Source: Alphaproteobacteria bacterium
GTDB lineage: Bacteria; Pseudomonadota; Alphaproteobacteria; UBA6615
DNA length: 64,000 nucleotides
Assembly: GCA_009691025.1 (NCBI GenBank)
Contig: SHWB01000002.1
Location: 8,300-72,299, forward strand
Reading direction: 5' to 3'
Part shown: one piece after another, positions 10,704-62,344 of the stretch
Numbering within the stretch: the stretch's first letter is position 1
Layout: every line of letters begins with the position of its first letter
Made by a program: the position numbers and the translations under genes
Notes under the pieces: model-generated
What the model was told of the DNA's origin: nothing
The model's database searches: none
Seen by the model: the letters and a program-made list of their open reading frames with translations, nothing else

Positions 10704-10718
10704 CGCGGGAGCGCCGCG

Positions 10719-15451: not shown

Positions 15452-15735
15452 GGCAGACCTCGCTGGCCGTCGCGCCCGACGGCGCGACCGCATCGGGAGA
15501 TGCCCGTCAGGGCCGGGTGAAGGTGCCGATTTCGCACGCGCGAAAGGCGGTCATGCGGCCTAAACGTGGCGGTCCGGCGACCGGCCCCCTTTTTTCGCAT
15601 TGCCGCTTGTGAAGATTGCGGCCCTGCGCCGTGTCCTGCATCGGTGCCGCCAAAGCAATGACGCCGGCCTCTTGCGAGGCCGGCGCCTTGTCGTTCGCCC
15701 GGCGGCGCCAGGCGCCGCCGGGGGGCTGTTCGCGA

Positions 15736-16836: not shown

Positions 16837-17574
16837 TCATATATGGGGTATCGCGAGATTCAAGTAGACATTGGCGTAGACGGACAGTTCCCGCAGGCCG
16901 TCCAGATCGTGGATTATGACCTAGTGGTCCTTGACCGTGATCAACTCCCGCTCGCGCAACTGGCGCAGGACACGGTTGGCGTGGATAGCGGTGAGGCCGA
17001 GCGCCTCGGCGAGGACATACTGGTTGAGCGGACAGGCAAAACTGGTCGACGAGACGAGGTCGACCATCTTCAGGCGCTGTCCGATCTCGATGAACAGGTG
17101 GGCCAGCCGCTCGATGGCGGTACGCCGGCCGATATTCACCAGATGCTCGACCACCATGGCTTCGTCGCGCGAGACCGCCCACAGGATGGCGGTCGCCAGC
17201 CGCGGGAAGCGGTGGAACAGCTCGATCATCCGCGGCGGCGAGACTTCGCTGACGACGGCGTCGGTCATGCATGCGAAGGAATGATCGGAGGTGCGCAGCA
17301 AGACACTGCGCAGACCCATGAAATTGCCCGGCAGCGGAAAACCGATGATCTGGCGGCCGCCGTTCGGAACCATCTTGTAGGAGATGGCCCACCCGGTCTG
17401 CAGGATGAAGGCGTGATGACCGGTCTGGCCTTCATGCACGAGGTCGGTGAGGGCGGAAACGGCTCGGCGGCGCGATTGCATCTCGTCGAGGCAGGCCAGT
17501 TCTTCGGGCCCCAGCGGCAGGAAGCCGGTGAGCTTCTTCGCGAGCGGCGATTCGGTGCGCGAAGTTGGCGGCAC
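16837..17574 (-). pseudogene. Crp/Fnr-family transcriptional regulator with an in-frame TAG 27 codons before the family-typical C-terminus
   Basis: The ORF track ends at TAG 16921-16923 (..LRQLRERELITVKDH*). The same frame continues VIIHDLDGLRELSVYANVYLNLAIPHI to TGA 16837-16839. That tail matches the usual Crp/Fnr ending (..I.I.D...L..LA.....YL). cNMP-binding and HTH regions are intact. Confidence 0.65.
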
Positions 17575-18191
17575 TACGGCATCATGGGAAGCGCTGCGGC
17601 GGCGCCGGCCTGTTGGACGGCACGCCGGAGACAGTCGAAGGAAGTGCGGAACCGGAGGCGTGACAGTGACGTCGCTCGATCATGGACGACTGCGGGAGAC
17701 TATCACACATTAGCATCGTCCCGGCGGCGTCCGTGTAACCTCGCGTACTCGGTCGCCCCGCGCCCGACACACCGCCCGACACACCGTCGCGCGGGGACAG
17801 CAGCTCAGCACGGGATGCAAATGAACACCGACCTGCCGCCGCCGGCCTCGCCGCACTGCCGATTTGCGAGTCGCTGTTGTTGTCCCTGTCGGACAACGAG
17901 CTTCTCGACAATGCGGAGGTCGTATCCATCCTCGCCGACGCAGCTATCGCGCACCGGGGGCCATGGCCAGCGCCATCGATCCGAAGAAACACGGGGCCGC
18001 CGCCGAGATGATAGACCGCATCATCAAGGGCAAGAATTCGGTGGGGCACGACTGAGCGATGCGAACTCGCGCAAGCGGGGCGCGGAGCCTGTCTTGCTCC
18101 ACGCCCCGCGTCAGCGCAGTCGCGCGTCCAGTCGTCCGGAACGCTCGGCCGACGGAAGCCCTCCGACGAAGGCGGAGGCGTCCGCCGCGCG

Positions 18192-23690: not shown

Positions 23691-24257
23691 ATGGCCGTCC
23701 GCCTCACCCGCATCTACACGCGCGGCGGCGACAAGGGCGAAACCTCGCTCGCCGACGGCAGTCGCGTGCCCAAACACGATCTGCGCGTGGCGACCTACGG
23801 TACGGTCGACGAGGCCAACGCGACCATCGGCCTCGCCCGCCTGCATACGGCTGGCGTGGCCGACGCCATGCTGGCCCGCATCCAGAACGATCTGTTCGAC
23901 CTCGGCGCCGACCTGTCGACGCCGGAGGACGGCAGGCGCGGGCCCGGCGCGCTGCGCATCGTCGCGGCGCAGGTCGAACGGCTGGAGCGCGAGATCGACG
24001 CCATGAACGAGCGTCTCGCGCCCCTCGACTCCTTCGTCCTGCCGGGCGGCAGCGCCGCCGCCGCCTGGCTGCACCTCGCCCGCACGGTGACGCGGCGGGC
24101 CGAGCGGCTGGCGAGCGATCTGGCGGACGACGTGCCGGTCAATCCTGCCGCGCTGCAATACGTCAATCGACTGTCCGACCATCTGTTCGTACTGGCCCGT
24201 CACCTCAACTATGACGGCCGCTCCGACGTGCTCTGGGTGCCCGGCGCGAACCGGTGA
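23691..24257 (+). CDS. ATP:cob(I)alamin adenosyltransferase, PduO type
   Basis: MAVRLTRIYTRGGDKGETSL.DGSRV.K...RV..YG.VDE.N... then FVLPGG...AA.LH.AR.V.RRAER and ..YVNRLSD.LFVLAR. Confidence 0.85.
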   Translation: MAVRLTRIYTRGGDKGETSLADGSRVPKHDLRVATYGTVDEANATIGLARLHTAGVADAMLARIQNDLFDLGADLSTPEDGRRGPGALRIVAAQVERLEREIDAMNERLAPLDSFVLPGGSAAAAWLHLARTVTRRAERLASDLADDVPVNPAALQYVNRLSDHLFVLARHLNYDGRSDVLWVPGANR

Positions 24258-25157: not shown

Positions 25158-26110
25158 TGGCTGTCCTCGTCGTCGCCGAACACGACAACCGGCATATCAG
25201 GCCCGCCACCCTCAACACCGTGACCGCGGCGGTCGCGCTGTCCGGCCACGGCGCCGGCGACATCGTCGTGCTGGTAGCCGGCAAGGATTGCGCCGGGGCG
25301 GCGAAGGAAGCCTCCGCGATCGCCGGCGTGGCGAAGGTGCTGGTCGTCGACGACGCGGCCTTCGCGCATCCGCTGGCCGAGCCGATGGCCGACCTCGTCG
25401 TCGGCCTCGCCAAAGGTTACAGCCATGTGCTGACGCCGGCGACGACCACCGGCAAGAACTTCCTGCCGCGCGTCGCGGCGCTGCTCGACGTGCAGCAGAT
25501 CTCCGAGATCTCGGCGGTGCAGTCCGCCGACACCTTCGTGCGCCCGATCTATGCCGGCAATGCGCTGGCGACGGTCAAATCGTCGGACGCCGTCAAGGCG
25601 ATCACGGTGCGCACCACCGGCTTCGACGCGGCGAAGACGGGCGCCGGCCCGGCGCCTGTCGAGAGCATCGGCGCGGTGCCGGATCGCGGCCTGTCGAGTT
25701 TCGTCAGTACCGCCGACAGCGGCCGCGACCGGCCGGAACTCACGGCCGCGCGCATCGTCATCTCCGGCGGCCGCGGCATCGGCTCGGCCGATAATTTCTC
25801 GCTGATCGAGCCGGTCGCCGACGCGCTGGGCGCGGCCATCGGTGCATCGCGCGCGGCGGTCGATGCCGGCTACGCGCCGAACGACTGGCAGGTCGGCCAG
25901 ACCGGCAAGGTGGTGGCGCCGCAGCTCTACATCGCGGTCGGCATTTCCGGCGCCATACAGCACCTCGCCGGCATGAAGGACTCGAAGGTCATCGTGGCCA
26001 TAAACAAGGATGAGGAAGCGCCGATTTTCCAGGTCGCCGATTACGGTCTGGTGGCCGATCTGTTCAAGGCGCTGCCGGAGCTTGCCGCGGCACTCGGCAA
26101 GCCCGCCTGA
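25157..26110 (+). CDS. etfA: Electron transfer flavoprotein, alpha subunit
   Basis: 1-nt overlap with the etfB stop. ..RPIYAGNA...V......K..TVR...F and ..VVSGGRG.GS..NF.L...[42 protein letters not shown]. Confidence 0.92.
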
Positions 26111-26129
26111 GGCGCACGAGAGGGAAACG

Positions 26130-27011
26130 ATGAGCTCAACCGTCAACCGCCTCGGCGTCGTCGGCGCCGGGCAAATGGGCAACGGCATCGCCCATGTCGC
26201 CGCCATTGCCGGCATGAGCGTCACCATCGTCGACGCGCAGCCGGCCGTGCTGGAGCGCGCCAAGGGCGTGATCGAGCAGAACATGGCCCGCCAGGTGAAG
26301 CGCGGCCTGCTCGACGAGGCCGACAAGGCCGGGGCCAAGAGCCGCATCGCGCTGGCCGGCGACCTCAAGGCCCTGTCCGACTGCGACGTGGTGATCGAGG
26401 CGGTCACCGAGGACGAGAAGGTCAAGGTGGCGATCTACAAGCAGCTATGTCCGCTGCTGAAGCCCGGGGCCATCGTCTGTTCCAACACCTCGTCGATCTC
26501 GATCACGCGTCTCGCCTCGGCCACCGACCGGCCGGCCCGGTTCATGGGCATGCACTTCATGAACCCCGTGCCGGTGATGAAGCTGGTCGAGCTGATCCGC
26601 GGCCTCGCCACCGACGACGCCACCTTCGCCACGGTCACCGAGCTGGCCAAGCGCATGGGCAAGATTGGCACGGTGTCGGAGGATTTCCCGGCCTTCATCG
26701 TCAACCGGGTGCTGCTGCCGATGATCAACGAGGCCGTCTACGTCCTCTACGAGGGCGTCGGCACGGTCGATTCGATAGATACCTCGATGAAGCTCGGGGC
26801 CAACCACCCGATGGGCCCGCTGGAACTGGCCGATTTCATCGGCCTCGATACCTGCTTGTCGATCATGCAGGTGCTTTACGACGGCCTCGCCGATTCGAAG
26901 TACCGGCCCTGCCCGCTGATGGTGAAGTACGTCGAGGCCGGCTGGCTCGGCCGCAAGGTCGGCCGCGGCTTCTACGATTACTCGGGCGAGACGCCGGTGC
27001 CGACGCGGTAG
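26130..27011 (+). CDS. hbd: 3-hydroxybutyryl-CoA (3-hydroxyacyl-CoA) dehydrogenase
   Basis: ATG 26130. ..LGVVGAGQMGNGIAHV.A..G..V...D ... FMGMHFMNPVPVMKLVELIRG..T ... FIVNR.L.PMINEA... Confidence 0.9.
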   Translation: MSSTVNRLGVVGAGQMGNGIAHVAAIAGMSVTIVDAQPAVLERAKGVIEQNMARQVKRGLLDEADKAGAKSRIALAGDLKALSDCDVVIEAVTEDEKVKVAIYKQLCPLLKPGAIVCSNTSSISITRLASATDRPARFMGMHFMNPVPVMKLVELIRGLATDDATFATVTELAKRMGKIGTVSEDFPAFIVNRVLLPMINEAVYVLYEGVGTVDSIDTSMKLGANHPMGPLELADFIGLDTCLSIMQVLYDGLADSKYRPCPLMVKYVEAGWLGRKVGRGFYDYSGETPVPTR

Positions 27012-34060: not shown

Positions 34061-34422
34061 TCAGTGCACCGCCTGCCGCGCCAGCACGTCGTCGACCGCG
34101 GCGCAGATCTGGCGCAGCGTGAAGGGCTTGGCGACGACACGGTGGATCAAATCGTCGAGGTTGTGCGCGCGCTGCCGCTCGGCGGCATAGCCGGTCATCA
34201 GCAGGATCGCCATGTCAGGCCGCTCGCGCGCGGCCTTCAGGGCCAGGGCTATGCCGCCCATGCCGGGCATGACGATGTTGGTGACCAGCAGGTCGAAGGG
34301 TCGCTTTCCCAGCGTATCGAGCGCGTCGATGACGGTAGCACCTCGTGGCCGCGATGCGCCAGCGCACGGCGCACGAATTCGCGCACCGCTGCGTCGTCCT
34401 CGGCTACCAGCACGCGTGCCAT
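34061..34422 (-). pseudogene. cpdR: Single-domain response regulator CpdR, carrying a 1-nt frameshift
   Basis: ATG 34422: MARVLVAEDDAAVREFVRRALAHRGHEV, then the frame is lost. The rest, ..TVIDALDTLGKRPFDLLVTNIVMPGMGGIALALKA..PDMAILLMTGYAA.., is in the -1-shifted ORF 34061..34462. The 362-nt span is one nt short of 121 codons, and GAGGTG-CTACC suggests a missing G near 34338-34341. Confidence 0.7.
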
Positions 34423-34565
34423 CGTGGCGGACGGTCCCCGTCGTCTCGGGGCTGCGGCGCACCAGGCGGGCACTTCCCCGCAGACACCGGCAATCGCACG
34501 AATGTGGTTAACGACATCCTAACGAAATTCAACGCACCTACCGCCCCGGTGGTTCCGCCGACGCC

Positions 34566-35472: not shown

Positions 35473-36207
35473 ATGCCCGCCCCCACCGCCCCTGCCTTGT
35501 CCGTCGGCGATGGCGCCCACAGCGTACTGCGATTCGAGAATGTCGGCATGCGCTACGGCACCGGGCCGGAGGTGCTGCGCGACGTCTCCTTCGCATTGAC
35601 GCCGGGGTCGTTCCATTTCATCACCGGCGCCTCGGGCGCCGGCAAGTCGACCCTGCTGCGCTTGATGTACCTTGCCCAGCGGCCAACGCGCGGCCTCGTC
35701 CATCTGTTCGGCCACGATGTTGCCCTGACGCCGCGCCGCCGCCTGCCGGCCCTGCGCCGCATGATCGGCGTCGTCTTCCAGGATTTTCGCCTGATCGACC
35801 ACCTCAGTACGCTCGACAATGTGGCCCTGCCGCTGCGCCTGTCCGGCGGCCGGCCCGACGAGATCGACCGTCATGTGCGCGAACTGCTAGCCTGGGTCGG
35901 CCTCGGTGACCATCTGAACGCCCGGCCGGAGACGCTGTCGGGCGGCCAGCAGCAGCGCGTGGCGATCGCCCGCGCCGTCATCGCGCGGCCCAATCTGCTG
36001 CTGGCCGACGAGCCGACGGGCAATGTCGACGACCGCATGGCGATGCGGCTGATGCATCTGTTTGTCGAGCTGAACCGGATGGGCACGACTGTCGTCATCG
36101 CCAGCCACAACGAGCCGCTGATCCGCCGCTTCGGCTTTCCCGTCCTGCATCTCGCGCACGGCCAGATCGTCGCCGCGCCGCCGCCGGTCGACGGGGATGC
36201 GTCGTGA
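35473..36207 (+). CDS. ftsE: Cell division ATP-binding protein FtsE
   Basis: ..[37 protein letters not shown].., [14 protein letters not shown] and [11 protein letters not shown]. Confidence 0.88.
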
Positions 36208-37076
36208 GGCGCCGCCCCGACATCCATTTCGAGGACGATCTCTCGTCGCGCTTCCTGCCGGCGATCGTCGCCCTGATGGTCTTCCTCGGCCTGCTGGGCG
36301 GCGCCGCGGCGCTGGCCGTCGGCGGCATCGTCGCGACCTGGGATACCGACCTCGTCGGCCGCCTTACCGTGCAGGTGCCCGACGACGGCGCCGTTACCGC
36401 GCAGCGCCTGCAGCGCGTCGAGCAGATTCTGCGCGCGACGCCTGGCGTCGCCGCCGTGCGCACGCTGACACCTGCTGATACCCAGGCGCTGGTTGAACCG
36501 TGGCTCGGCAAGATCTCGCCCGAGGCCGGCCTGCCGCTGCCGCGTGTCGTCGATGTCGAGCTGGCACCCGGCGCGGCGATCGATCCCGGCGCGCTCGCCG
36601 CGCGCCTCGCCGGCGATGCGCCTGGCGTCGTCGTCGACGATCACCACGACTGGCTCGGCCGGCTGGTGGCGCTGGCGCGCACGATCGAGGCCGTGGCCGT
36701 CATCGTGCTGGCGCTGATCGCCTCGACGGCGGTCGCCACCGTCGTCTTCGCCACGCGCAGCGGGCTAGCCGTGCATGCGCCGACGGTCGAGCTGCTGCAT
36801 CTGATGGGCGCGACCGACGGCTACGTCGCCGGCCAGTTCCAGCGCCATGCCATGCGGTCGGGCGCCATCGGAGCGGCGATCGGCACGCTGCTGTCACTGC
36901 TGGCACTGGCCGCTCTCGTGGCGGCGGCGTGGCGGCTGGAAGCGGCCTTTCTGCCGCTGCCCGGTATCGGCCTGCGCGCGGCGGTTCTGCTGGCCGCCGT
37001 GCCCGTCGTCGCCGTGCTGATCGTCATGGTGACGGCGCGGGCGACCGCTCTGCGTGCGCTGGCGCATCTGCCATGA
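36204..37076 (+). CDS. ftsX: Cell division permease FtsX-like protein
   Basis: GTG start overlaps the ftsE stop. 290 aa with TM1, a periplasmic domain and three C-terminal TM helices. Confidence 0.8.
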
Positions 37077-37702
37077 CCGCCCGGAGCCGGCACGCCTGGC
37101 GCATCGCCGCGGTCGCGGTGCTGGCCGTGGCATTCGCCTTCGTCGCCGGCTTCGCCACCTTCGTCTCGGCTATTCAGAAGGCCGACGTGTCGCTCACGGC
37201 GGCCGGCGCAGACGCCGTGGTCGTGCTCACGGGCGGCGCCGGTAGGGTCGTCGAGGGCATCGATCTGCTGGCGGCGGGACGGGCGAAGAAGCTGTTCGTC
37301 TCGGGCGTCGACCGCGGAGTCGATGTCGCGGCGCTGCTGGCCGCCGCGCGGCGCGGCCCGGCAGGCATAGAATGCTGCATCGCGCTCGGCTACGGCGCCG
37401 ACGACACCGCCGGCAACGCGGCCGAGACGGCGCGCTGGATGGATGCCGAGGGCTTCGCCTCGCTGCTGCTGGTGACGACCGACTGGCACATGCCGCGCAG
37501 CCTGATCGAATTCCGCCGCGCCATGCCGAAGGCGACGATCGTGCCGCGCCCAGTGCCGTCGCCTACCGTACATGTCGACGACTTGTGGCGCTGGCCAGGC
37601 TCGACGCAGTTGCTCGCGGGCGAATACATCAAGGTGCTCGCGGCGCTGTCGCGGGTACGGCTGGCACCGCTGCCCGCCGCCGCGCCCGGCGAACGGTCGT
37701 GA
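37073..37702 (+). CDS. YdcF family protein (DUF218)
   Basis: ATG 37073 overlaps the ftsX stop. ..DAVVVLTGG.GR...G..LL..G.A..L.VSG and ..A.NA.ET..W......S..LVT...HM.RS.. Confidence 0.75.
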   Translation: MTARSRHAWRIAAVAVLAVAFAFVAGFATFVSAIQKADVSLTAAGADAVVVLTGGAGRVVEGIDLLAAGRAKKLFVSGVDRGVDVAALLAAARRGPAGIECCIALGYGADDTAGNAAETARWMDAEGFASLLLVTTDWHMPRSLIEFRRAMPKATIVPRPVPSPTVHVDDLWRWPGSTQLLAGEYIKVLAALSRVRLAPLPAAAPGERS

Positions 37703-38451
37703 AGCGGCTGCGGGCGCTGGCCTTCACCGGAGCCTTCTATGTCGTGACCACATTGTTTGCTCTGCCGACAGTGTTCCTGCTTGCCCTGCCGCGCCGTTCA
37801 ACGGTCGGCTATGCCCGGCTGTGGGTCGCGGCAATCCTGTGGCTGCTGGCGCGCATCGTCGGGTTGCGCCATGTCGTGCGCGGCATGGACACGGTGCCGG
37901 CCGGACCGGCGATCATCGCCGCCAAGCACCAGTCGGCCTGGGACACGCTGGCGCTGTTCGCGCTGTTCGGCGACCCGGCCATCGTAGTCAAGCGCGAGCT
38001 GACCTGGATTCCACTGTTTGGCTGGTGCCTGCTGCGCGCCGGCATGGTGCCGGTCGACCGCGCCGGCGGGGCCACGGCGCTACGCAGGCTCGTCGCTACG
38101 GCCGGGCGGCTCGCTGTCGCCGGACGGCCGATTCTCATCTTCCCGCAGGGCACGCGCACCCCGCCTGGCGCGGCGCGTCCCTACCAGCCTGGCATCGCCG
38201 CCCTGTACGCCGCGCTCGACCTGCCGGCGGTGCCGGTGGCCCTCGATTCGGGCCTGTTCTGGCCGCGCCGCTCGATCCTGCTGGAGCCGGGGACCATCGA
38301 GGTCGAAATCCTGCCGGCCATCCCGCCCGGCCTCGACCGGCGCGCTTTCATGGCGCGCCTCGAAGGGGCGATCGAGCCGGCTACGGCGCGGCTGGAAGCC
38401 TGTGCCCTCGCCTCGCGTCGTAAAGGGGCGGCCGTCGTGTCTGGCCGCTGA
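37699..38451 (+). CDS. plsC: 1-acyl-sn-glycerol-3-phosphate acyltransferase family protein
   Basis: GTG 37699 overlaps the previous stop. The acyltransferase H-box variant AAKHQSAWDT and the ..IFPQGTR.. motif are present. Confidence 0.85.
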   Translation: MKRLRALAFTGAFYVVTTLFALPTVFLLALPRRSTVGYARLWVAAILWLLARIVGLRHVVRGMDTVPAGPAIIAAKHQSAWDTLALFALFGDPAIVVKRELTWIPLFGWCLLRAGMVPVDRAGGATALRRLVATAGRLAVAGRPILIFPQGTRTPPGAARPYQPGIAALYAALDLPAVPVALDSGLFWPRRSILLEPGTIEVEILPAIPPGLDRRAFMARLEGAIEPATARLEACALASRRKGAAVVSGR

Positions 38452-38470
38452 GCCACGCCGGGCCTATCGT

Positions 38471-40880
38471 ATGGCCCGGCAGGAGGCAGGTCTGGCACAG
38501 CTCGTCCCCATCGCCCATCGTATCTGGGACATGAAGTACCGGCTGCGCGACGCCGCCGGGGCGCCCGGTCGACGGCTCTGTCGCCGATACCTGGCGGCGC
38601 GTCGCCCGCGCGCTCGCCGCCGCCGAACTCGACCCGGCCGCGTGGGAAGCGCCGTTCTACGCCGCGCTCGACGGCTTCGGCTTCATCCCGGCCGGCCGCA
38701 TCCTCGTCGGCGCCGGCACCGGCCGCGACGTCACCCTGTTCAACTGCTTCGTCATGGGCACGATCCCGGACGACATGGGCGGCATCTTCGCCCATCTGCG
38801 CGAGGCGGCGCTGACGCTGCAGCAGGGCGGCGGCATCGGCTACGATTTCTCGACGCTGCGGCCGCGCGGCTCGCTGGTGAAGGGCGTCGGCGCCGACGCC
38901 TCGGGCCCGCTGTCCTTCATGGACGTCTGGGACGCGATGTGCCGCACTGTGATGAGCGCCGGCTATCGCCGCGGCGCGATGATGGCGACGCTCGCCTGCG
39001 ACCATCCCGACATCGAGGCCTTCATCGACGCCAAGCGCACGCCCGGGCGCCTAACCATGTTCAACCTGTCGGTTCTAGTCACATACGCCTTCATGGCGGC
39101 GGTCTAGGCCGATGCGCCGTGGGATATGGTGTTTGGTGGCACGGTGGCGAAGACGCTACGCGCGCACGAACTATGGGACCGCATCATGGCGGCGACATAC
39201 GCCAATGCCGAGCCCGGCGTCGTCTTCATCGACCGCATCAATGCCGAGAACAATCTCGGCTGGCTTGAGACGATCCGCGCCACCAACCCCTGCGGCGAGC
39301 AACCGCTGCCGCCCTACGGCGCCTGCCTGCTCGGCTAGCTCGATCTCGCGCGGCTCGTCGAGGCGCCGTTCACCGCCGACGCGCACATTCCCGGCGCGGC
39401 CTTCGCCCGCCTAGTGCCGGTGGCCGTGCGCATGCTCGACAACGCCATCGACGTCTCGCGCTTCCCGCTGCCGGCGCAGCGCGCCGAGGCGCTGGCCAAG
39501 CGCCGCATCGGCCTCGGCGTCACCGGCCTAGCCGACGCTTTGGCGCTGTGCGGTGCCCGCTATGGGGCGCGCGAGGCGGTGGTGCTGACCGAATGCTAGC
39601 TCGCCGCCATCGCGCGGCACGCCTACCTCGCCTCGGCCGCGCTTGCCGCCGAGAAGGGCCCGGTCCAGCTCTACGACAGCGCACGCTTCCTCGCCGCGCC
39701 CTTCGTGCGGCGTCTGCCGCAGGAGGTGCGCGACGCCATCGCGCGCCATGGCATCCGCAACGGCCTGCTCACCTCGATCGCGCCGACCAGCACGATCTCG
39801 CTGCTGGCCGGCAATCTGTCCTCGGGCATCGAGCCGATCTTCGCCCATGAGTACGAGCGCGCCGTGCTGATGCTCGATGGCGAACTCCGCCACGAGCGCG
39901 TCGAGGACTGGGCCGTGCGCCTGTGGCGCGAGACCAGTGGCGCCGACGCGCCGCTGCCGCCTGCCTTCGTCGACGCCCAGTCGCTGGCGCCGGGCGACCA
40001 TCTGGTGATGCAGGTGGCGGCGTAGAAATGGGTCGACAGCTCAATCTCCATGACCGTCAACGTGACGGAGACCATCGCTTTCGACGCCTTCAAGGACATC
40101 TACCTGCAGGCCTGGCGGCTCGGCTGCAAGGGCTGCACCACATACCTACCGAACGACGTCACCGGCTCGGTGCTGGCGACGACGCCCGCCGCGCAGCCGG
40201 AAGCCGCTCCGGCCGAGACGCCGCACAGGGGATTCGGCGACGTCTACGAGGCCGGCGGCGTGGTGTGGATGACGAAGCCGCTCGACCGGCCCGAGGCACT
40301 GCCCGGACGCACCTACAAGATCCGCTGGCCGGACAGCGACCACGCCATCTACATCACGCTGAACGACATCGTGCGCGACTGCCGCCGCGCACCCTTCGAG
40401 GTGTTCATCAATTCCAAGAACATGGAGCACTACGCCGGGACGGTGGCGCTGACGCGCATGATCTCGGCGATGTTCCGGCGCTGCGGCGACGTCTCCTTCG
40501 TGGCCGAGGAGATGAAGGCGGTGTTCGACCCGCGCGGCGGCCAGTGGCTGGAGGGCCGCTACGTGCCCTCTCTGCTCGCCGCCATCGGCGAGGTCATCGA
40601 ACGTCACATGATCGATATCGGTTTCCTTCCGGCGCGCGAGGCCGGCGCCGTGGGCCGCGCCGCGCATGCCGCGGCGGCCGCCGGTGGCAGCGGGACCGGC
40701 GGGGCCAAGCCTGCGCCCCTCACGGTGGCGGCGGCGGGACTTCGGCAATGCCCGCGCTGCGCCGCCGCCGGGCTGGTGCGGCAGGAAAACTGCGACGTCT
40801 GCCTAGATTGCCGGCACTCGAAATGCGCCTGCGCTATCGCGGCGGCAGGCCGGCCGCGTCTGATATACTGCCGGCCCTGA
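38471..40880 (+). pseudogene. nrdJ: Adenosylcobalamin-dependent (class II) ribonucleotide reductase, heavily disrupted
   Basis: The N-terminus (ATG 38471, ..PIAHRIWDMKYRL..) is in frame 2. From about 38568 the protein continues in frame 0 (VDGSVADTWRRVA..GRILVGAGTGRDVTLFNCFVMGTIPDDM..GGGIGYDFSTLRP..RRGAMMATL.CDHPDIE.FI.AK). In-frame TAG codons lie at 39105-39107, 39336-39338 (within [17 protein letters not shown]), 39597-39599 and 40023-40025. The five ORF-track pieces from 38754 to 40880 share one frame. The C-terminal CxxC..CxxC ribbon is retained. Confidence 0.85.
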
Positions 40881-40900
40881 TCGACGCACGGTGCGAGGGC

Positions 40901-41119
40901 ATGGACGGAACCGGCGGCATGGAAGACCGCGAGGCGCTCGAAATTCTGCTGTCCGACCTGCGCAGCGAGCATCGCGACCTCGACGACGTCATCGAGCGGC
41001 TGGCCGAAGCGTTGCCGTTCGACCAGCTGCGCCTGCAGCGGCTGAAGAAGCGCAAGCTGCAGCTGCGCGACCGCATCCAGCAGGCCGAGAGTTCGCTCTA
41101 TCCGGATATCATCGCGTAG
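40901..41119 (+). CDS. DUF465 (YdcH-like) small protein
   Basis: ..LLSDLRSEHRDLDDVIERL......DQLRLQRLKKRKLQLRDRI. ATG 40919 is an alternative start. Confidence 0.7.
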   Translation: MDGTGGMEDREALEILLSDLRSEHRDLDDVIERLAEALPFDQLRLQRLKKRKLQLRDRIQQAESSLYPDIIA

Positions 41120-41175
41120 GCGTGTGGCCGAGCGGGAATGCCAGTGCGGTCCCCATCCTTCGCCCTTAGATACGC

Positions 41176-41225
41176 CGCCTGATGGCGGCTACTCAGGGTG
41201 AGGAGGCTCAGGATGAGGACCCGGA
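41176..41225. repeat. Repeat family B fragment
   Basis: ctcagggtgaggaggctcaggatgagga is the reverse complement of the tcctca(c/t)cctgagcctcctca motif seen at 585-612. Lies in a convergent gap. Confidence 0.4.
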
Positions 41226-41240
41226 ACGATCCCGCAAACC

Positions 41241-44063
41241 TCACCCGGACGGCGCCGCGAAGAACCACCGCACCAGCCCGACCGCCTCGGCCAGCCCGAC
41301 ACGCTCGATCTCGACGCCGGCGGGGAAGGCTGTGGCGAGGCGCGTCGGCAGGGCCGCGTCGAGCAGCACAAAGATGCCGCGGTCGCCGGCGCGGCGCACC
41401 AGCCGTCCATAGGCCTGGGCGAGGCGCAGGCGCGCCATCGCATCGTCGACGGCGCGGCCGCCGAACTCCGCCCGCCGGGCCTTGTGCAGGATGGTCGGGC
41501 GCGGCCACGGCACGCGGTCGAAGACGATGAGGCGCAGCGAGCGTCCCGGCACGTCGACGCCGTCGCGCACGGTGTCGGTGCCGAGCAGGCAGGAATCCTC
41601 CTCGGCGCGGAAGATGTCGAGCAAGGTCGAGACGTTCATCGCGTCGACATGCTGGGCGTAGAGCGGCACGCCGGCATCGGCGAGCGGGCCGACGATGCGC
41701 GCATGCACCGCGCGCAGCCGTTCGATAGCCGTGAACAGGCCGAGCGCGCCGCCGCCCGAGGCGAGGAACAGTTCGCGGAAGGCCGCCGCCACCTGGTCGG
41801 CGGCGCCGCGCCGCACGTCGCGCACCACGAGGATGCGCGTCGCTTCCTTGTAGTCGAAGGGCGAGGGCACGCGCGCGCGCAGCGCTGGACGGGCGAGGTG
41901 AAGCGCGCCGGTGCGCGCCTCGGCGGCGTGCCAGTCGGCCTCGGTGTCGCCGGTGGCGTCGGTCAGAGTCGCCGAGGTGACGACCCAGCCATGGGCGTGG
42001 CGCATCAGCACGGCGGCGAGCGGCATGGTCGGGTCGAGATGATGGCGGTACATGCCGACATCGGCCTCGCGCCCGTCGTTGCGCTCGATGGCGAACCAGT
42101 CGACGAGGCCGGGCGGCGTGCCGCCGGCGAGGTTGGCGAGCATCGCGCGCCAGCCGGCCAGCGTGTCGGTGGTGCGCCTCTCGATGGCGCGTGCGACGCT
42201 GTCGAGCCGCCCGCGCGTCGCGCTGTCCAGATCCCCGGCCTCGTCGTCTAGGCGGGCGCGCAGGCGTTCGGCCAACGCCGTCAGCGGGCGGGCGAGGTCG
42301 CCCAGCGCGGCCCCGGCCGACAATGCCGCCGCTCGCACCGAATCCTCGACGGGCTCGGTCTCGCACTCGCTGCCGTAACTGTCCCCGCCATTGGGTGCGC
42401 GGGCGCGCACCTGGGCGCGCACCGCCATGAGGAAGGCCTCCAGCGGCCCCTGCGGGCGGCCGTCGAGGATGCGCGCGCCCCAGCCCGGGCCCGGCAGCGC
42501 CCGCGCCGCCGCCAGAGCACCGTCGAGGGCGGCGGTAGCCGCTACATCGCCGCCGGAGAGGTCGCCGGCCCGCAGTGCGAGGCCGCGCGCCCGGCCACGC
42601 CGCCCGCCCTCGGCGCCGACGATCCAGCGCCGCAGCTCCGCCGCCTCGCGCGCCGTCAGATGCGTCGAGAAGGTCGAGTCGGCGGCGTCGAACAGATGAT
42701 GGCCCTCGTCGAAGACGTAGCGTACCGGCAGGCGGTCGTCGTCGCCGGCGCGCGCCGCCGTCAGCATCGCCAGCGCGTGGTTGGTGACGACGATCTTCGC
42801 GTGCGGCGCGCGGCGTATCGAGCGCTCGACGAAGCAGTGGCCGTAATGGGGGCAGGCGGCGTAGATGCACTCGCCGCGACGGTCGGCGAGCCCCAGAGTC
42901 GGGCCTCCGCCGACGAGTTCGGTTAGCCAGGAGGGAAAGTCGCCGCCGAAATCGCCGTCGCGCGTCGCCGCCGCCCAGCGCAGCACGAGGCCGATGCCGA
43001 CCGCTTCCGGCGTGTGCAGCGTGCCCATACGCCCCACCGTATCCTCGAGATTCAGCAGGCACAGATAGTTCTCGCGCCCCTTGCGGATGACTACCGCCTC
43101 GGCGCGTTCCTTAGGATCGGGCCACAGCCGCGCCAGCTCGGTGTCGAGCTGCTGCTGCAGCGCGCGGGTATAGGTCGAGGCCCAGACCGGCGCGCCGTTC
43201 TTCTCGGCCCAGAGCGAGGCGGCGGCGAGGTAGCCGGCGGTCTTGCCGGTGCCGGTGCCGGCTTCGGCGAGCACCACGGACGGCTCGCCAGGAGCCACGC
43301 GCGGTGCGAATGCGGCGGTCACGGCCGAGGCGTAGTCGGACTGGCTCGGCCGTTCCTCGGCGCCGCCGCCGAGCATGCGGGCGAGTTGCGCGCGCGCTTC
43401 GGCCGGCTCGACAGGATGGCTGCCGGGCGGATCGGGCGGCGCCATGTCCTGCCAAGCCGGCAGGTTGCGCCAGACGGCGAGCGCCGGTTCGTTCCAGGCC
43501 TTGCCGGTCGCCGCCGGCCCCCAGGCCCAGCCGGCGGCGGCGAGCGCGCGGGCGATGGCGATGGCGGAGGGATTGGCCGCCTCGCCGGCGAGTCCGTCGA
43601 GCAGGCGGACGGCGATTTTCGGCAGGGCGGCGACGGTGGCCTCGGGACCGGCCGGCGCCGAAAGTCCCAGCGCACGGGCAAGCCCGCCGACCGTGGGTAC
43701 TACGGGCCGCGCCGGCCGCGCGAAGGCCCATAGTTCCAGCAAGTCGAAGGCGGCCAGCCGGTCAATGCCGAGGCGCCGCGCCGTCGCCGGCGCATGGCAG
43801 ACTAGGACGGGCGTGGTCGCGGCGCGCGCCGCCGCGAGCGGTAAGGGGACATGCTCGACCACGCCGTCGGCGTCGAGCCACACGGCATTGCGCGCCAGCG
43901 CCACGATGGCGGGCGGCGGCGCGGCGGCGGCTTCGCCGTGGTTGGAGGTGCTCAAATCTTCTGTCCGGTCGCTAAAATTAGCGGCAAGCTTAGCGAAAAG
44001 CGGACTCGATGGTGGCTGACATGTGCCGGAAATTTCCAGATAAATCCCGCCAGCCACTGCCAC
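41241..44063 (-). CDS. DinG/XPD-like ATP-dependent DNA helicase with a long N-terminal extension
   Basis: Uninterrupted 940-codon ORF. Walker A AEAGTGTGKT, the Fe-S cysteine cluster NYLC...GECIYAACPHYGHC, DEGH (DEAH-type) at FDEGHHL, and C-terminal helicase motifs. The true start is possibly TTG 43955. Confidence 0.8.
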   Translation of the reverse strand: MAVAGGIYLEISGTCQPPSSPLFAKLAANFSDRTEDLSTSNHGEAAAAPPPAIVALARNAVWLDADGVVEHVPLPLAAARAATTPVLVCHAPATARRLGIDRLAAFDLLELWAFARPARPVVPTVGGLARALGLSAPAGPEATVAALPKIAVRLLDGLAGEAANPSAIAIARALAAAGWAWGPAATGKAWNEPALAVWRNLPAWQDMAPPDPPGSHPVEPAEARAQLARMLGGGAEERPSQSDYASAVTAAFAPRVAPGEPSVVLAEAGTGTGKTAGYLAAASLWAEKNGAPVWASTYTRALQQQLDTELARLWPDPKERAEAVVIRKGRENYLCLLNLEDTVGRMGTLHTPEAVGIGLVLRWAAATRDGDFGGDFPSWLTELVGGGPTLGLADRRGECIYAACPHYGHCFVERSIRRAPHAKIVVTNHALAMLTAARAGDDDRLPVRYVFDEGHHLFDAADSTFSTHLTAREAAELRRWIVGAEGGRRGRARGLALRAGDLSGGDVAATAALDGALAAARALPGPGWGARILDGRPQGPLEAFLMAVRAQVRARAPNGGDSYGSECETEPVEDSVRAAALSAGAALGDLARPLTALAERLRARLDDEAGDLDSATRGRLDSVARAIERRTTDTLAGWRAMLANLAGGTPPGLVDWFAIERNDGREADVGMYRHHLDPTMPLAAVLMRHAHGWVVTSATLTDATGDTEADWHAAEARTGALHLARPALRARVPSPFDYKEATRILVVRDVRRGAADQVAAAFRELFLASGGGALGLFTAIERLRAVHARIVGPLADAGVPLYAQHVDAMNVSTLLDIFRAEEDSCLLGTDTVRDGVDVPGRSLRLIVFDRVPWPRPTILHKARRAEFGGRAVDDAMARLRLAQAYGRLVRRAGDRGIFVLLDAALPTRLATAFPAGVEIERVGLAEAVGLVRWFFAAPSG

Positions 44064-49079: not shown

Positions 49080-49891
49080 CTACCGCCGGATGTGCGCGAA
49101 GTCCCAGTAGAGTTCGCGCACCCGGCGGTAGACCGGGCCGGGCTGCAGGTCGCGGTCCTCGCAGCGGATGACCGGATGCACCTTGCCGAAATTGCCGGTG
49201 TTGAAGATTTCGTCGGCACGGCGCAACTCGTCGGGATGCACCGGGCGTTCCTCGACGGCGATGCCATCGGCGCGCAGCAGGACGGCGACGCTCTGGCGCG
49301 TGATGCCGTTGAGGAAGGTGCCGTTGGGCGAGGGCGTGATCGCCACACCGTCCTTCACCAGACAGACATTGGCGGTGGCGAATTTGGCGACCGTGCCCAT
49401 CGGATCGAGCATGACGCAATTGTTGAAGCCGAGATCGACCGCGTCGCGCAGCGCGCGCGCCGATTGCGGGTAGAGGCAGGCGGTCTTGGCCTCGGTCGGC
49501 GCGGTGTCGGGCGTGGGCCGGCGCCACGGCGACATGCAGGCGGTGAAGCCCGTGCCCTGCGGCATCGGCGATTCGACGAAGACCATGGCGAAGCGCGTGG
49601 TCTCCGGATCGGGCAGGATCATCGGCAGGCCCTGTTCGCAGAAGAACAGCGGCCGGATGTAGAGGGCGGTGCCGGAGGGGAAGCGCGCCGCGCCGTCGCG
49701 CGCGATCTCCCCGATCTCGCCGTCCGACAGCATCGGCCGAGGCCGAGCGTCTGGGCCGAGCGCACGACACGCGCGCAATGGCGGTCGAGGTCGAGGGCGA
49801 CCGAGCCCATCCACGACGAGTGCGACAGCGAGCCGATCAACGGCACGTTGCCCTTGCGCCACTAGCCGTCGACCCGGATCAGTGCAGCCAT
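49080..49891 (-). pseudogene. Class IV (branched-chain/D-amino-acid type) aminotransferase with an in-frame TAG and a frameshift
   Basis: ATG 49891: MAALIRVDG then TAG (49862-49864), then WRKGNVPLIGSLSHSSWMGSVALDLDRHCARVVRSAQTLGLG (ORF 49619..49846). The rest, ..PMLSDGEIGEIARDG...GTALYIRPLFF...NGITRQSV...ADEIFNTGNFGKV.PV.., is in the frame of ORF 49080..49940. The switch is near 49729-49748. Confidence 0.75.
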
Positions 49892-50030
49892 CGCCGGAGC
49901 GCCGTCGCCACCGGGGTCTCGCGCCCCTCCCGTCGAGCATAGCCTCGCCCTCGCGCGGGCGTCACGCGTTGCGGGCTGGGCGCCGGCCGCAATTGCCGGG
50001 CGCCGCGCGCCGGCCCATATTGCCGCCATC

Positions 50031-50600
50031 ATGCCCATCCTAAAGATCGCCCGCATGGGACACCCGATCCTACGCCGCATCGCCGAGCCGGTCGCCGATC
50101 CGACCGACCAGGCCGTGCGCCGGCTGGCGGAGGCCATGATCGAGACGATGATCGACGCCGACGGTGCCGGCCTCGCCGCGCCGCAGGTGCACATGCCGTG
50201 GCGCATGGTCGTCGTGCAGGTGCCGGCCGAGCGGCTGGCGCGCGAGGGCGAAACGGACGAGGCCGGCGTGCCGCCGACGGTGATGATAAATCCGCTGATC
50301 GAGCCGCTGGGGCCGGAGAAGGAGACGGCCTTCGAGGCCTGCCTGTCGGTGCCCGGCCTCGCCGGCCCGGTGCCGCGCTTCCGCCGCATACACTACCGTT
50401 ACCAGACGCTCTGCGGCGCGACGGTGGAGCGCGTCGTCGAGGGCTTCCATGCGCGCGTCATCCAGCACGAATGCGACCATCTCGACGGCATCCTCTATCC
50501 CATGCGCGTCGAGGATTTCTCGCAGTTCGGCTTCGTCGAGGAGCTGCGCCGCGCCGGCTCGGCGCAGGGCGACGAGGACGGCGAGGATGACGAGGACTAG
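50031..50600 (+). CDS. def: Peptide deformylase
   Basis: GAGLAAPQV, EACLSVPG (a variant of EGCLS) and HECDHLDG motifs, with an unusual acidic tail ..GDEDGEDDED. After the TAG stop the frame stays open and remains acidic for 16 more codons (see findings). Confidence 0.88.
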   Translation: MPILKIARMGHPILRRIAEPVADPTDQAVRRLAEAMIETMIDADGAGLAAPQVHMPWRMVVVQVPAERLAREGETDEAGVPPTVMINPLIEPLGPEKETAFEACLSVPGLAGPVPRFRRIHYRYQTLCGATVERVVEGFHARVIQHECDHLDGILYPMRVEDFSQFGFVEELRRAGSAQGDEDGEDDED

Positions 50601-52267: not shown

Positions 52268-52296
52268 AGTTAATTTCCAGATACTTGAGTGAGCAA
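52268..52296 (-). promoter_or_regulatory. Candidate sigma70-type promoter for pheA embedded in the last codons of kdsB
   Basis: The minus strand reads TTGCTC-N17-TTAACT, ending about 19 nt upstream of the pheA ATG (52249). It coincides with a local AT-rich patch and atypical codons at the kdsB 3' end. Confidence 0.3.
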
Positions 52297-53025
52297 CTTC
52301 CGGGCTCGTTCGAGGTCGGCCGGAGTATCGACACCGAGCGGGACGGTGTCAACGAGGCCGACGGCGATGCTCATGCCCGCTTCCAGCGCCCGCAACTGCT
52401 CCAGCCGCTCGCGCCGTTCGAGCGGACTGGTCGGCAGCGCAACGAAGCGCGCCAGAGCCTCGCGGCGGAACACGTAGAGGCCGATATGGTGGTAGAGTGG
52501 CCCGTCGCCTGCGGGCACGGTGGCGCGGCTGAAATAGAGCGCGCGGCCGACCGTGGCGCCCGCCGCCAGCGCCACCACTGCCTTCACGACGTTGGGATCG
52601 GTGCGCTCCTCGGCGCGCAGGATGGGGGCGGCGAGGGTGGCGATATCGGCGCCGGTCTCGGCCAGCGCGGCCACGGCGGCGCGCACCAGTGCCGGGTCGA
52701 GGGTCGGGAGGTCGCCCTGCAGGTTCACCACGGCGTCGTGCCGGCCGGTGGGATCGACCTTGCCGAGGGCCTCGAAGATGCGGTCGGAGCCCGAGGGATG
52801 CGCCGGATTGGTCAGCACGGCGCGGCCGCCGGCGGCCTCGACCGCCGAGACGATCTCGCCCTCGGCGGCGGCGACGACGACCGGCCCGACGCCGGCCTCG
52901 GCGGCGCGGCGCCAGCACTGTACGATCATTGGCGCGCCGGCGATGTCGGCCAGCGGCTTGCCCGGCAGGCGGGTCGAGGCCATACGCGCCGGGATGAGGA
53001 CGATGGGAGTGAGGAAAACCGACAT
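52270..53025 (-). CDS. kdsB: 3-deoxy-manno-octulosonate cytidylyltransferase (CMP-KDO synthetase)
   Basis: I start it at ATG 53025. [32 protein letters not shown]... then GSDRI.EAL and ..VNLQGD.P. TAA stop. Confidence 0.9.
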
Positions 53026-53190
53026 GTTGCCCCGTTTCTGCGACGTAATGCCGCGCGCTGGCGGGCCGGCTAGGCCGCCCCGCGGCAGCGACGGTATAGA
53101 ATGATCACCCGCTGCGACCAGCCAGCTCGGGGCTGGCAGGTTCCGTGGTACGGGACCGGCGGCAAGCGCGCGTGAAGGGATCGATCGCCC

Positions 53191-53745
53191 ATGTCCAGTG
53201 CGGACCTCAACAAGGTCTTCGGTGCGGGCCTCATCGCCCTGCTGTTTGCCGTGACGATCGGCATCTTCATCAACAAGATGTGGGATGGCGGCCATCACGG
53301 ACCCGTCGAGCGCCATTATGCCTATCCGGTGGAGGTAGAGGGCGCCGGCCAGGCGACCACCGCCGCCGCCGAGCCCGCGCAGCTCAAGCTGGTTGGCTCG
53401 CTGCTCGCCGCCGCCGACGTCGCCAGCGGCAAGAAACTGTCGGGCCGCTGCGCGGCCTGCCACACCTTCGAAAAGGGTGGCGCCGCCCGCGTCGGTCCCA
53501 ATCTGTGGGGCGTGATCGGCGGCAAGACGGCGCACGCGGAGGGTTTCTCCTATTCCTCGGCGATGACCGGCATGAGCAGCACTTGGGACTTCGAGACGCT
53601 GAACGCCTTCCTCGCCAATCCCAAGGGCGTGGTGCCGGGCACGAAGATGACCTTCGCCGGCCTTGCCAAGGCCGAGGATCGGGCCGCGCTGATAGCCTGG
53701 CTCAACCAGCAGTCGGACAGCCCGCTGCCGCTGCCGGCCAACTGA
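53191..53745 (+). CDS. cycM: Membrane-anchored c-type cytochrome (CycM-like)
   Basis: N-terminal TM anchor, heme-binding CAACH, and ..GPNLWGV.G......EGF.YS.AM........W.....L..FL..PK..VPGTKM.F.GL. Confidence 0.8.
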
Positions 53746-53788
53746 CGGGACGGCGCGTGGCCGCCGGCCAGCGTGGCAGGATCGCACC

Positions 53789-54586
53789 GTGACCGATACC
53801 GACGACGACACCCTCCTCGACCTGGCGCGCGACCTCGCGGCGGCCGCGCGCGCCGTGACGCTGCGCCATTTCCGCCAGCCCTTTACCGTCGACGCCAAGG
53901 GCGATGCGAGCCCGGTGACGATCGCCGACCGCGACGCCGAGACGGCCATGCGCCGTCTGCTGGCGGCCCGCGTGCCAGCGCATGGCATCCTAGGCGAGGA
54001 ACATGGTGCCGAGCGCACGGGCGCCGACCAGGTCTGGGTGCTCGACCCGATCGACGGCACGCGCGCCTTCATCACCGGCGTGCCGGTCTGGGGCACGCTC
54101 ATCGCGCTCGTGCGGGCCGGAAAGCCCGTGATCGGCATCATCGACCATCCGGCGCTGGGCGAGTGCTGGATCGGTGTCGCCGGCCGGCCGACACTGCATC
54201 GGCGCGACGGTGCAGCGCCGGTGCCCGTCCGTACCCGGGCCTGCCCGACGCTCGCCGCCGCGAGCCTGTTCGCCACCGCGCCGGAGATGTTCGCCGCGCC
54301 GGCCGATTTTGCCGCCTTCCGCCGCGTCGCCGACCGCGCGCGCTACACCCGCTACGGCACGGATTGCCTCGCCTACGGCCTGATTGCCGCCGGCCATGCC
54401 GATCTGGCCGTCGAGGGTGGCATGAAGCCCTATGATTACTGCTCGCACGTACCCGTACTGGAGGGCGCCGGCGGCGTCATCAGCGACTGGCAGGGGCAGC
54501 CGCTTGGGCTCGGCTCGGACGGGCGAGTCCTGGCTGCCGGCGACACCGCGCTGCACCGCGTCGCACTGGGCGTGCTCGCGCCCTGA
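53789..54586 (+). CDS. Inositol monophosphatase family protein (HisN-like histidinol-phosphatase candidate)
   Basis: GTG start. ..[11 protein letters not shown], ..ILGEE.G, ..[22 protein letters not shown] and ..YG.DC.AY.L.A.G..DL..E.. Confidence 0.75.
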
Positions 54587-60215: not shown

Positions 60216-60847
60216 TGAACCGCACGCCCACGCCACGCACCGGCACCATCCGTACCGACCTCCAGCTCATCGCCGACATGGTCGTGCCGAGCTCGCGCGT
60301 GCTCGATATAGGCTGCGGCGACGGCACGCTGCTGTCCTACCTAGTCCATTTCAAGGGCGTCGACGGGCGCGGCATCGAACTGTCGCCGGCCGGCGTCAGC
60401 GAAGCCGTCGCGCATGGCCTGGCGGTGATCCAGGGCGATGCTGAATCGGTCGTCGCCGACTATCCGTCGGATGCGTTCGACTACGTTATCCTGTCGCGGC
60501 TGCTGCCGGCGATCTTCGACGTCCGCCCGATGCTGGCCGAGCTGCTGCGCATCGGCCGTAACGCCGTCGTCAGCTTTCCCAACTTCGCCTACTGGCGCCT
60601 GCGCGCGCAGCTGCTGGTCAACGGGCGGGCGCCGCATTCGCACATTCTAGACTCTCCCTGGTACTCGACGCAGAACATCCGGCTCGTCACCATCGCCGAC
60701 TTCCTCGCGCTGGCCAGCGAACTCGGCGTGCATGTCGAGCGTGCGGTGCTGATCGGCCGCGACGGAAGGGTGCGACGGGTCGCGCGGCCCGGCTGGTTCG
60801 ACAATCTGCGCGCCGAGCAGGCGGTGTTCCTCATTTCGCGGGACTGA
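60212..60847 (+). CDS. metW: Methionine biosynthesis protein MetW
   Basis: The ATG overlaps the metX stop. ..DL.LIA..V...SRVLD.GCGDG.LL..L......GRGIE and ..[12 protein letters not shown]...GR.P. Confidence 0.85.
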
Positions 60848-61601
60848 CCGGTCCCTCGCGCCCGGCCGCGATGCTGGCGGGCAAATAGCGCCGGCGCGCG
60901 CGCTCGCCGGCACCGATCGGCGCGGCGGCATAGACCTGCTTGCCGGCTTCGACCATCAGCACCCCGCCGAGCGGATGGAACCAGCGCGCGCCCAGCCGTT
61001 CCCACGCATAGGCGCCAGACAGCACGAATCTCCGCCGCGTCGGCGGCACGAACAGCGCGCGCCGCGCCGTCAGCGGCGCGAACATGGCGGCGCGCAGCGT
61101 GCGGTTGAGCTGCTCGAGCGAGTAGGGATGGCCGTGGCCGAAGGGCGTGTGATCGCTGCGCGCCCAGATCGAGCGCCGGTTGGGCACGATCGCGAGCATC
61201 CTGCCGCCATCGGCCAACACACGCCACAACTCGCGCAACATGGCCTGCGGCTGCGCCGCGTGCTCCAGCGCGTGAACCATCAGGATACGGTCTACCGAAA
61301 GGTCGGGCAGCGGCAGTTCACTCTCATGCGCCAGAGCCACCACATTGGGCTCGCGCACGGCGCTGGCCGACGGTGCGGCGGGCCAGGCGATCACGCCCAT
61401 CGGCGCCGGCATGATCGCCAGAGTGCGCGCCGCCTCCTCGTGGAATGGCCGCAGATACGGCGTGGCGTAGCCGATGCCGGCGATCGACATACCCGCCGTC
61501 TCGGGCCAGATGTCGCGCACCGAATGGCGCACTATGCGGCACACGGTCTGGCCGAGGCTGGTAGCGTAGAAATCGCGCTGGTCGACGACGTCGGGCCACA
61601 T
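60831..61601 (-). CDS. Class I SAM-dependent methyltransferase
   Basis: 256 aa. ..FY.T..G.......R......WPE..G....G.GYA.PYL and ..S.DRIL.VH.LE......ML.E.WRVL..GGR.L..VPNR. Its 3' end overlaps metW by 17 nt (convergent). Confidence 0.75.
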   Translation of the reverse strand: MWPDVVDQRDFYATSLGQTVCRIVRHSVRDIWPETAGMSIAGIGYATPYLRPFHEEAARTLAIMPAPMGVIAWPAAPSASAVREPNVVALAHESELPLPDLSVDRILMVHALEHAAQPQAMLRELWRVLADGGRMLAIVPNRRSIWARSDHTPFGHGHPYSLEQLNRTLRAAMFAPLTARRALFVPPTRRRFVLSGAYAWERLGARWFHPLGGVLMVEAGKQVYAAAPIGAGERARRRYLPASIAAGREGPVSPAK

Positions 61602-61741
61602 GGTGGCACGCTACCACGGTGGCGGCTGCATATGCGCGGGCGGCACAGGCACCATACCGGCGCCCGGCTTGGTATGCCGGGCCGTGCCCGCTAGGCTCGC
61701 GGGCCAACGCACTGAATCGGAAACAGGATCGGAAGCCGGCC

Positions 61742-62344
61742 ATGAAACTCTACTTCTCCGCCGCCTCGCCCTACGCGCGAAAGGCACGCGTTGTCGCCAT
61801 CGAGGCCGGGCTCGCCGCGAAGGTCGAGATGGTCGAGATCAACCCCTGGACCGATCCGGCCGGTTACCGCGACCTCAACCCGGTCGGCAAGGTGCCGACG
61901 CTGGTGTCGGACGACGGCACGGTGCTGTTCGAATCCACCATCGTCTGCCAGTACCTCGCCACCCAGGCGCCAGCGTCGGGCCTGCTTCCGGACGGCGCGG
62001 CGCGCTGGCAGGCGCTGCGCCTCGACGCCATCGCCACCGGCATGCTCGACGCCTCGGTCAATGCCCGCGTCGAGACGCTGTTCCACGAGGGCGACAAGCT
62101 CTCCCAGAAATTCGTCGACCGCCAGGTATGGTCGGTCAACACCGCGCTCGACTTACTGGAGCGCGAGGCTTCGGCGCTCGACGGCAAGGTGACGCTGGGC
62201 CAGATTGGCGTCGGTTGTGCGCTGGCCTACCGCGATTTCCGCTTCGCTGCCGACGATTGGCGCAAGGGCAGGCCGAAGCTCGCGGCGTGGTTTGCCAAAT
62301 TCGCCGAGCGCCCGTCGATGCAGCAGACCAGACCGCCGGCATGA
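61742..62344 (+). CDS. Glutathione S-transferase family protein
   Basis: MKLYFSAASPYARKARV..IE.GL...VE.V......DP......NP.GKVPTL..DDG.VLFES..I..YL. Confidence 0.8.
   Translation: MKLYFSAASPYARKARVVAIEAGLAAKVEMVEINPWTDPAGYRDLNPVGKVPTLVSDDGTVLFESTIVCQYLATQAPASGLLPDGAARWQALRLDAIATGMLDASVNARVETLFHEGDKLSQKFVDRQVWSVNTALDLLEREASALDGKVTLGQIGVGCALAYRDFRFAADDWRKGRPKLAAWFAKFAERPSMQQTRPPA

Follow-up and report, generated by a model that had tools for sequence, protein, structure and literature searches.

Multiple disabling lesions in a class II ribonucleotide reductase gene (nrdJ) of an alphaproteobacterium whose genome seems to be eroding

The 64,000-nucleotide stretch of alphaproteobacterial DNA analysed here (contig C4:8300-72299 of its assembly; hereafter the window, whose coordinates are used throughout unless a contig is named) carries on its forward strand, at 38471..40880, the remains of nrdJ, the gene for a class II, adenosylcobalamin-dependent ribonucleotide reductase (RNR). 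The gene is of the ~780-amino-acid (aa) type with a TSCPD domain and a cysteine-rich C-terminus, and it carries six lesions: a +1 insertion and four in-frame TAG codons, which cut it into six pieces, and a lost stop. Reading through these interruptions revealed a product that scores 512.9 bits on the NrdJ_Z model TIGR02504 (cut-off 399.95), and the separate pieces each match NrdJ_Z on their own (E = 2e-14 to 6e-43), with the TSCPD domain located in the C-terminal piece. The relic is full length with no large deletion, and we put at roughly 85% the probability that it is a true, non-functional remnant of a redundant class II RNR that decayed in an eroding genome. Taken by itself, the locus is a pseudogene of the ordinary kind, and the enzyme that it once encoded is well known.

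The assembly that holds the window comprises 1.67 Mb in 27 contigs, with ~70% G+C and an estimated completeness of 61%. Intact comparison genes come from two syntenic relatives. The first is the congener (G001; 4.4 Mb, 98% complete), whose contig C3 is collinear with the window and whose nrdJ is 88% identical to the window copy at the nucleotide level, and the second is a JGI metagenome contig (L112), which at 91% nucleotide identity holds the nearest intact relative and shares the gene order of the window (acyltransferase, nrdJ, DUF465 gene, helicase). Conservation counts were drawn from 80 NrdJ orthologues, across which 391 alignment columns are conserved at 90% or more; related bacteria with similar NrdJ genes belong mainly to uncultured, Rhodospirillales-like alphaproteobacteria.

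The N-terminal piece of the relic (MARQEAGLAQLVPIAHRIWDMKYRLRDAAGAP; 38471..38566) follows the frame of the ATG at 38471 up to the 1-bp insertion, an extra C in a short C run at 38564..38566, where both relatives have CC in the context GCGCCGG and the window has CCC in the context GCGCCCGG. Downstream of the frameshift, the first TAG (39105..39107) derives from an ancestral GAG (Glu) by a G>T transversion, the second (39336..39338) from TCG (Ser in 80/80 orthologues) by a C>A transversion, the third (39597..39599) from TGG (Trp, 80/80) by a G>A transition, and the fourth (40023..40025) from CAG (Gln, 80/80) by a C>T transition. The last lesion converts the normal stop at 40830..40832 from TGA to TGC and adds 16 codons, up to a TGA at 40878-40880, beyond the six-cysteine C-terminal motif. 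All six lesions, which lie on the forward strand, are specific to the window lineage, as both relatives have sense codons (E, S, W and Q) at the TAG sites. An initial annotation of this DNA had called nrdJ a multiply hit pseudogene on the strength of a frame switch and four in-frame TAGs, one of them directly after the catalytic-site block; we see the same interruptions on translating 38471/38472-40880, with the TAG at 39336 being the one that follows the catalytic-site block, and the two intact syntenic relatives agree with the pseudogene call. The lost stop at 40830 was missing from its list.

Compared with known class II enzymes of the TIGR02504 family, the relic is homologous over its whole length and has the NPCGE motif, the TSCPD domain, the six C-terminal cysteines and the same neighbourhood, but unlike a working NrdJ it lies in six pieces, has lost its stop and has ~20 otherwise invariant residues replaced. 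Its frameshift, four TAGs and lost stop leave no uninterrupted frame across the full catalytic barrel. In the ~780-aa alphaproteobacterial type, the chain carries a TSCPD domain and ends with the cysteine-rich zinc-finger C-terminus (PMC5704485). In the relic all six cysteines of that motif are present, two motif glycines are replaced, and the 16-residue extension follows. The extended frame overlaps the 5' region of the downstream DUF465 gene (40823..41119, forward strand), whose true start, by comparison with the relative, probably lies near 40901. Beyond it a DinG-like helicase gene of 2.8 kb (41241..44063, reverse strand) is free of lesions and serves as an intact control beside nrdJ. An Rfam scan of 36000-42000 returned no riboswitch or other RNA family near the gene.

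Loss of constraint is also evident in the sense codons of the relic. Four substitutions that the initial annotation had named proved real on alignment, each at a site conserved in 79 or 80 of the 80 orthologues: the aspartate at 39084 (79/80) is now Y, the lysine at 40050 (80/80) M, the tryptophan at 40437 (80/80) G and the glycine at 40482 (79/80) C. The same alignment revealed further missense changes at invariant sites, namely R>H at 39165, R>L at 40146 and G>C at 40380 together with a G>S in the APTGTIS loop at 39789, while a P>L at 39873 affects a proline kept in 8/8 outgroups. Thus, although the active-site motif NPCGE is retained (as NPCGEQ), ~20 residues that are invariant elsewhere have been replaced, and among the family-invariant positions the D, K, W, R and APTGTIS glycine are changed and the S, W and Q are now stops. 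Across the 391 conserved columns the window copy departs 35 times and the congener 13 times, whereas the median among 79 orthologues is 7 and the most divergent of them departs 19 times. When eight outgroups were used and a site was taken as conserved where the other lineage agrees with the outgroup majority, 31 replacements fell on the window lineage and 4 on the congener (binomial p = 3e-6).

Evaluating the age of this decay gives a more recent picture than the number of lesions might convey. The overall ratio of non-synonymous to synonymous substitution rates (dN/dS) of nrdJ against the congener is 0.18, and because this lies within the range of most intact neighbours (0.07-0.28), most of the divergence arose while the gene worked. 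Three-taxon branch counts with L112 as sister and the congener as outgroup assigned 69 synonymous changes and 53 non-synonymous ones, the 4 stops among them, to the window branch of nrdJ versus 54 and 16 to the sister branch, a non-synonymous to synonymous ratio 2.6 times that of the sister branch, which with ~596 synonymous and ~1711 non-synonymous sites corresponds to an omega of ~0.27 and ~0.10, respectively. On the assumption that omega equals 1 once a gene is dead, these values would correspond to a neutral phase of roughly 15-20% of the branch that begins at the split from the nearest intact relative. Random substitution with the spectrum of this lineage yields stops at a rate of 2.5% and so predicts 1-2 stops for such a phase, and because the four observed point to a somewhat longer period, we widened the estimate to 15-30%. 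These counts suggest a gene that drifted neutrally for roughly 15-30% of the branch and was multiply hit without being an old pseudogene. The initial annotation had supposed a long-standing loss of constraint: the loss is borne out by the 31 versus 4 replacements and the 35 departures, but its long standing does not fit a dN/dS of 0.18 and a neutral phase of 15-30%.

That the genome must carry another RNR, as the initial annotation had reasoned, was confirmed by a genome search, which found an intact class I nrdA-nrdB pair on contig C18. The nrdA product (673 aa) scores 981 bits on NF006577 (cut-off 620), is 94% identical to that of the congener and has a dN/dS of 0.14, and the adjoining nrdB matches PF00268 with 248 bits and contains no stops. 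Three reductase types occur across 46 genomes of the family (the ~780-aa NrdJ, a ~1240-aa NrdJ and class I), all of which are present in the congener, and the short NrdJ is absent from many genera of the family. Because the family has three types and the short one is often missing, the redundancy is ancestral and the short NrdJ repeatedly dispensable. The ~1240-aa NrdJ was not found in the window's own assembly, nor was any of the 25 kb that surrounds it in G001.

From these comparisons we propose that an ancestor with redundant reductases would have left the short NrdJ dispensable in the window lineage, where it was knocked out, and that the class I enzyme, intact and under purifying selection, would supply the deoxyribonucleotides. 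After the first knock-out, drift would have added five more disabling lesions and the ~20 replacements of otherwise invariant residues. We infer that nrdJ became expendable through redundancy, under oxic conditions in which class I is favoured. Mycobacterial NrdZ offers a parallel, being a dispensable and patchily distributed class II RNR beside an essential class I RNR (PMC4428469). Like the mycobacteria, the window lineage has an intact class I enzyme and the B12-dependent one is optional, with the short NrdJ patchy in the family; unlike the mycobacterial case, the loss here is caught in progress as a full-length pseudogene, and the ancestor had a second, long NrdJ.

A side observation concerns the class I locus itself, where a block of ~670 bp (~40% G+C, containing a 198-aa open reading frame) is inserted between nrdA and nrdB of this sole intact reductase operon (C18:~26038-26710; L002:3144-3740). 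The AT-rich frame had no Pfam or PHROG match and only a weak, chance-level PADLOC hit. The congener lacks the block, and its nrdA and nrdB lie almost end to end.

We also considered whether nrdJ was lost along with the use of its cofactor, and rejected this cause, as the B12 machinery is intact. The PduO-type cob(I)alamin adenosyltransferase (23691..24254, forward strand; PF01923, 212 bits), which the initial annotation had rightly described as intact, is under constraint with a dN/dS of 0.10, and the genome further holds an intact 743-aa mutase-like gene with a B12-binding domain and one cobalamin riboswitch with intact cobU-, cobN- and cobO-like genes downstream of it. With this machinery in place, nrdJ was therefore lost as a redundant reductase and not with its cofactor, and the case shows that a B12-dependent enzyme can disappear while the metabolism of the vitamin persists. 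For annotation, the appropriate label is nrdJ pseudogene, which alone is a routine point, and deoxyribonucleotide synthesis should be modelled via the oxygen-dependent class I reductase, at least for the assembled part of the genome.

The decay of nrdJ is matched by changes elsewhere in the genome. Across 17 other genes, the window branch carries 503 synonymous and 333 non-synonymous changes and the sister branch 373 and 177. G:C>T:A changes make up 21% of those on the window branch in these 17 genes and 27% in nrdJ, compared to 11% on the sister branch, and under another polarisation the counts are 22/83 for the window versus 1/37 (p = 0.002). Within nrdJ, two of the four stops, D>Y, R>L and two Gly>Cys replacements are of this type. 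Defects in MutY, the A/G-specific adenine glycosylase, are a textbook cause of G:C>T:A bias, and in this genome mutY looks broken: its N-terminal part (own contig C3:141-862, reverse strand) has lost 1 bp near C3:314 and carries Asp in place of Asn in the VDGNVERV motif, its homology to the congener ends at own contig C3:141, and its last ~70 residues are encoded at the end of own contig C2:67223-67562, behind unrelated, more AT-rich DNA with in-frame stops. The fpg gene, which also serves oxidised-guanine repair, is intact. The loss of mutY would account for the G:C>T:A spectrum of the lineage, and the many hits that nrdJ took in a short neutral period would fit a background in which ~30% of the window genes are broken, substitution is faster and richer in G:C>T:A than in the sister lineage, and mutY is disrupted. 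A special process that creates CTAG or TA was tried as an explanation for the 7 CTAG sites and 8 CTA codons in the relic and rejected, as most of them reflect CTG/CTC>CTA changes at third positions or nonsense mutations of a single step, which a G:C>A:T plus G:C>T:A spectrum acting on GC-rich codons would be expected to yield.

Whether the lesions exist in the organism at all is the point on which the strongest rival explanation turns, namely that the organism has an intact gene and that the stops and the additional C arose as errors in the consensus of a metagenome bin with low coverage or several strains. Several points weigh against our reading here. The lesion bases are known from the assembly consensus and not from reads, the genome is an incomplete bin (61%, 27 contigs), the insertion falls in a short homopolymer, and the four stops are somewhat above the ~1-2 expected for the estimated neutral period. 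The disruption of mutY, too, is located at the ends of contigs, the least dependable parts of an assembly. G>T and C>A changes are moreover a known oxidative artefact of library preparation that could leak into a low-coverage consensus. Errors of this kind would nonetheless be expected to scatter evenly, yet disabling lesions cluster by gene, with 11/38 window orthologues hit (P = 0.004 under uniform scatter) and 27/38 without any, and nrdJ alone holds five internal lesions (P of at least five ~0.008 under uniform scatter) while its long neighbours, including the 2.8-kb helicase, are clean. The ~20 private missense changes at invariant residues sit in the same gene, and five of the six lesions are substitutions, unlike the indels typical of long-read error.

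An assembly in ENA (ERZ1305449) bears on the same question. One of its contigs, of 11.7 kb, begins inside nrdJ near 39527 and encodes identical 23-, 106- and 276-aa pieces, and thereby reproduces the third and fourth TAGs and the loss of the stop in a differently broken assembly. By exact-product look-up, the 106-aa, 276-aa and DUF465 products are on record only on this one ENA contig, and the 117-aa and 70-aa pieces have no exact product on record. Exact-pattern scans of genome and metagenome contigs with N at the site of the second TAG (so as to accept either allele) gave no match, and a literature search found no publication on ERZ1305449. The contig break near 39527 could itself reflect strain variation at the locus, as such breaks can signal a mixture of strains, and ERZ1305449 may derive from the same reads. 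Because of the latter possibility we still allow consensus error a small probability, slightly under one in ten, and otherwise hold to a genuine pseudogene.

A second alternative accepts the lesions as real but places them on an unfixed haplotype, such that intact nrdJ alleles coexist in the population and the species keeps the enzyme. The nearest intact allele is 9% different at the nucleotide level, so the diversity sampled lies outside the species itself, and the disrupted allele is carried by only one other assembly. Six independent lesions and many missense changes on one haplotype nevertheless imply a long time without selection, and nothing more than 91% identical was found among 5.8 billion clustered proteins. 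We regard coexisting intact alleles as quite improbable, more so than consensus error, and infer that the lesions of the pseudogene are fixed in the population.

How TAG is used in this lineage bears on the last alternative, that the gene still functions. TAG is an ordinary stop codon here, being the shared terminal codon in 10 orthologue pairs of the window, and no tRNA with a CUA anticodon was found among 24 tRNAs in the partial genome. The four TAGs of nrdJ each stand in for a different amino acid (E, S, W and Q), of which three are invariant, and as TAG is expected to make up 65% of single-step nonsense mutations in GC-rich codons, four out of four is unremarkable (p ~0.18). In Pseudomonas aeruginosa, NrdJa and NrdJb form a working class II RNR from two pieces, by a single conserved split (PMC4520616). 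The relic resembles this pair in being spread over more than one open reading frame, but differs in that its five random interruptions are shared by no relative and are accompanied by damaged invariant residues; it does not show a single conserved split with both parts constrained. Function by read-through or reassignment of TAG, or as a split multi-subunit enzyme of the NrdJa/NrdJb kind, is therefore scarcely credible, for although all four internal stops are TAG and the NPCGE motif and six C-terminal cysteines are still there, the gene also has a frameshift and a lost stop, lies in six pieces that no relative conserves, lacks a suppressor tRNA among those found, has invariant D, K, W, G, R and P residues replaced, and shows the raised non-synonymous to synonymous ratio described above.

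The short NrdJ reads in one frame in the closest relatives and in 13/14 other family genomes that carry it. The remaining one (G003; contig C36:707-2348, L008) reads in two frames, shifted after approximately residue 433, and may represent a second, independent pseudogene or an assembly error. Two further observations on codon use in the window's own assembly are that a tRNA-Sec gene (anticodon TCA) is present and that 32% of the long GC3-rich open frames terminate in TAG, a figure that premature stops in decaying genes have probably inflated.

Taken as a genuine pseudogene, the relic seems of interest mainly for what it says of a genome that appears to be eroding under a mutator-like regime, as it provides a dated marker of decay: in an enzyme so strongly conserved and so well understood, mutation specific to the lineage can be read cleanly from the lesion count, the raised share of G:C>T:A and a neutral period that spans roughly 15-30% of the branch. 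In combination with the broken mutY, this favours erosion of the genome as a whole under such a regime. Mycobacterium leprae and Sodalis glossinidius are pseudogene-rich genomes in early reductive evolution, and mutY-deficient strains have a G:C>T:A bias. The window genome is like these lineages in its many recently broken but recognisable genes (11/38), its non-synonymous to synonymous ratio, which is raised in all genes on the window branch (333/503 versus 177/373), and its G:C>T:A enrichment alongside a broken mutY; it is unlike them in its ~70% G+C, the absence of evidence for a host-restricted life, and its retention of B12 biosynthesis genes. A speculative extension, which we think has perhaps one chance in a few of being right, is that loss of MutY turned an uncultured, still GC-rich and seemingly free-living bacterium of Rhodospirillales-like type into a long-term G:C>T:A mutator with rapid genome erosion that takes redundant functions first. 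If so, mutation-driven genome reduction would have been caught early and outside any host, with the oxygen-independent, B12-dependent reductase going and the oxygen-dependent class I enzyme and B12 synthesis staying. Other window genes with stops or frame switches relative to the congener, a few of which may be shadow frames and not real genes, lie at 8648-10472, 10707-11948, 14645-15583, 16846-17658, 34064-34512, 49740-50567, 52273-53206, 53651-54580 and 60753-62329.

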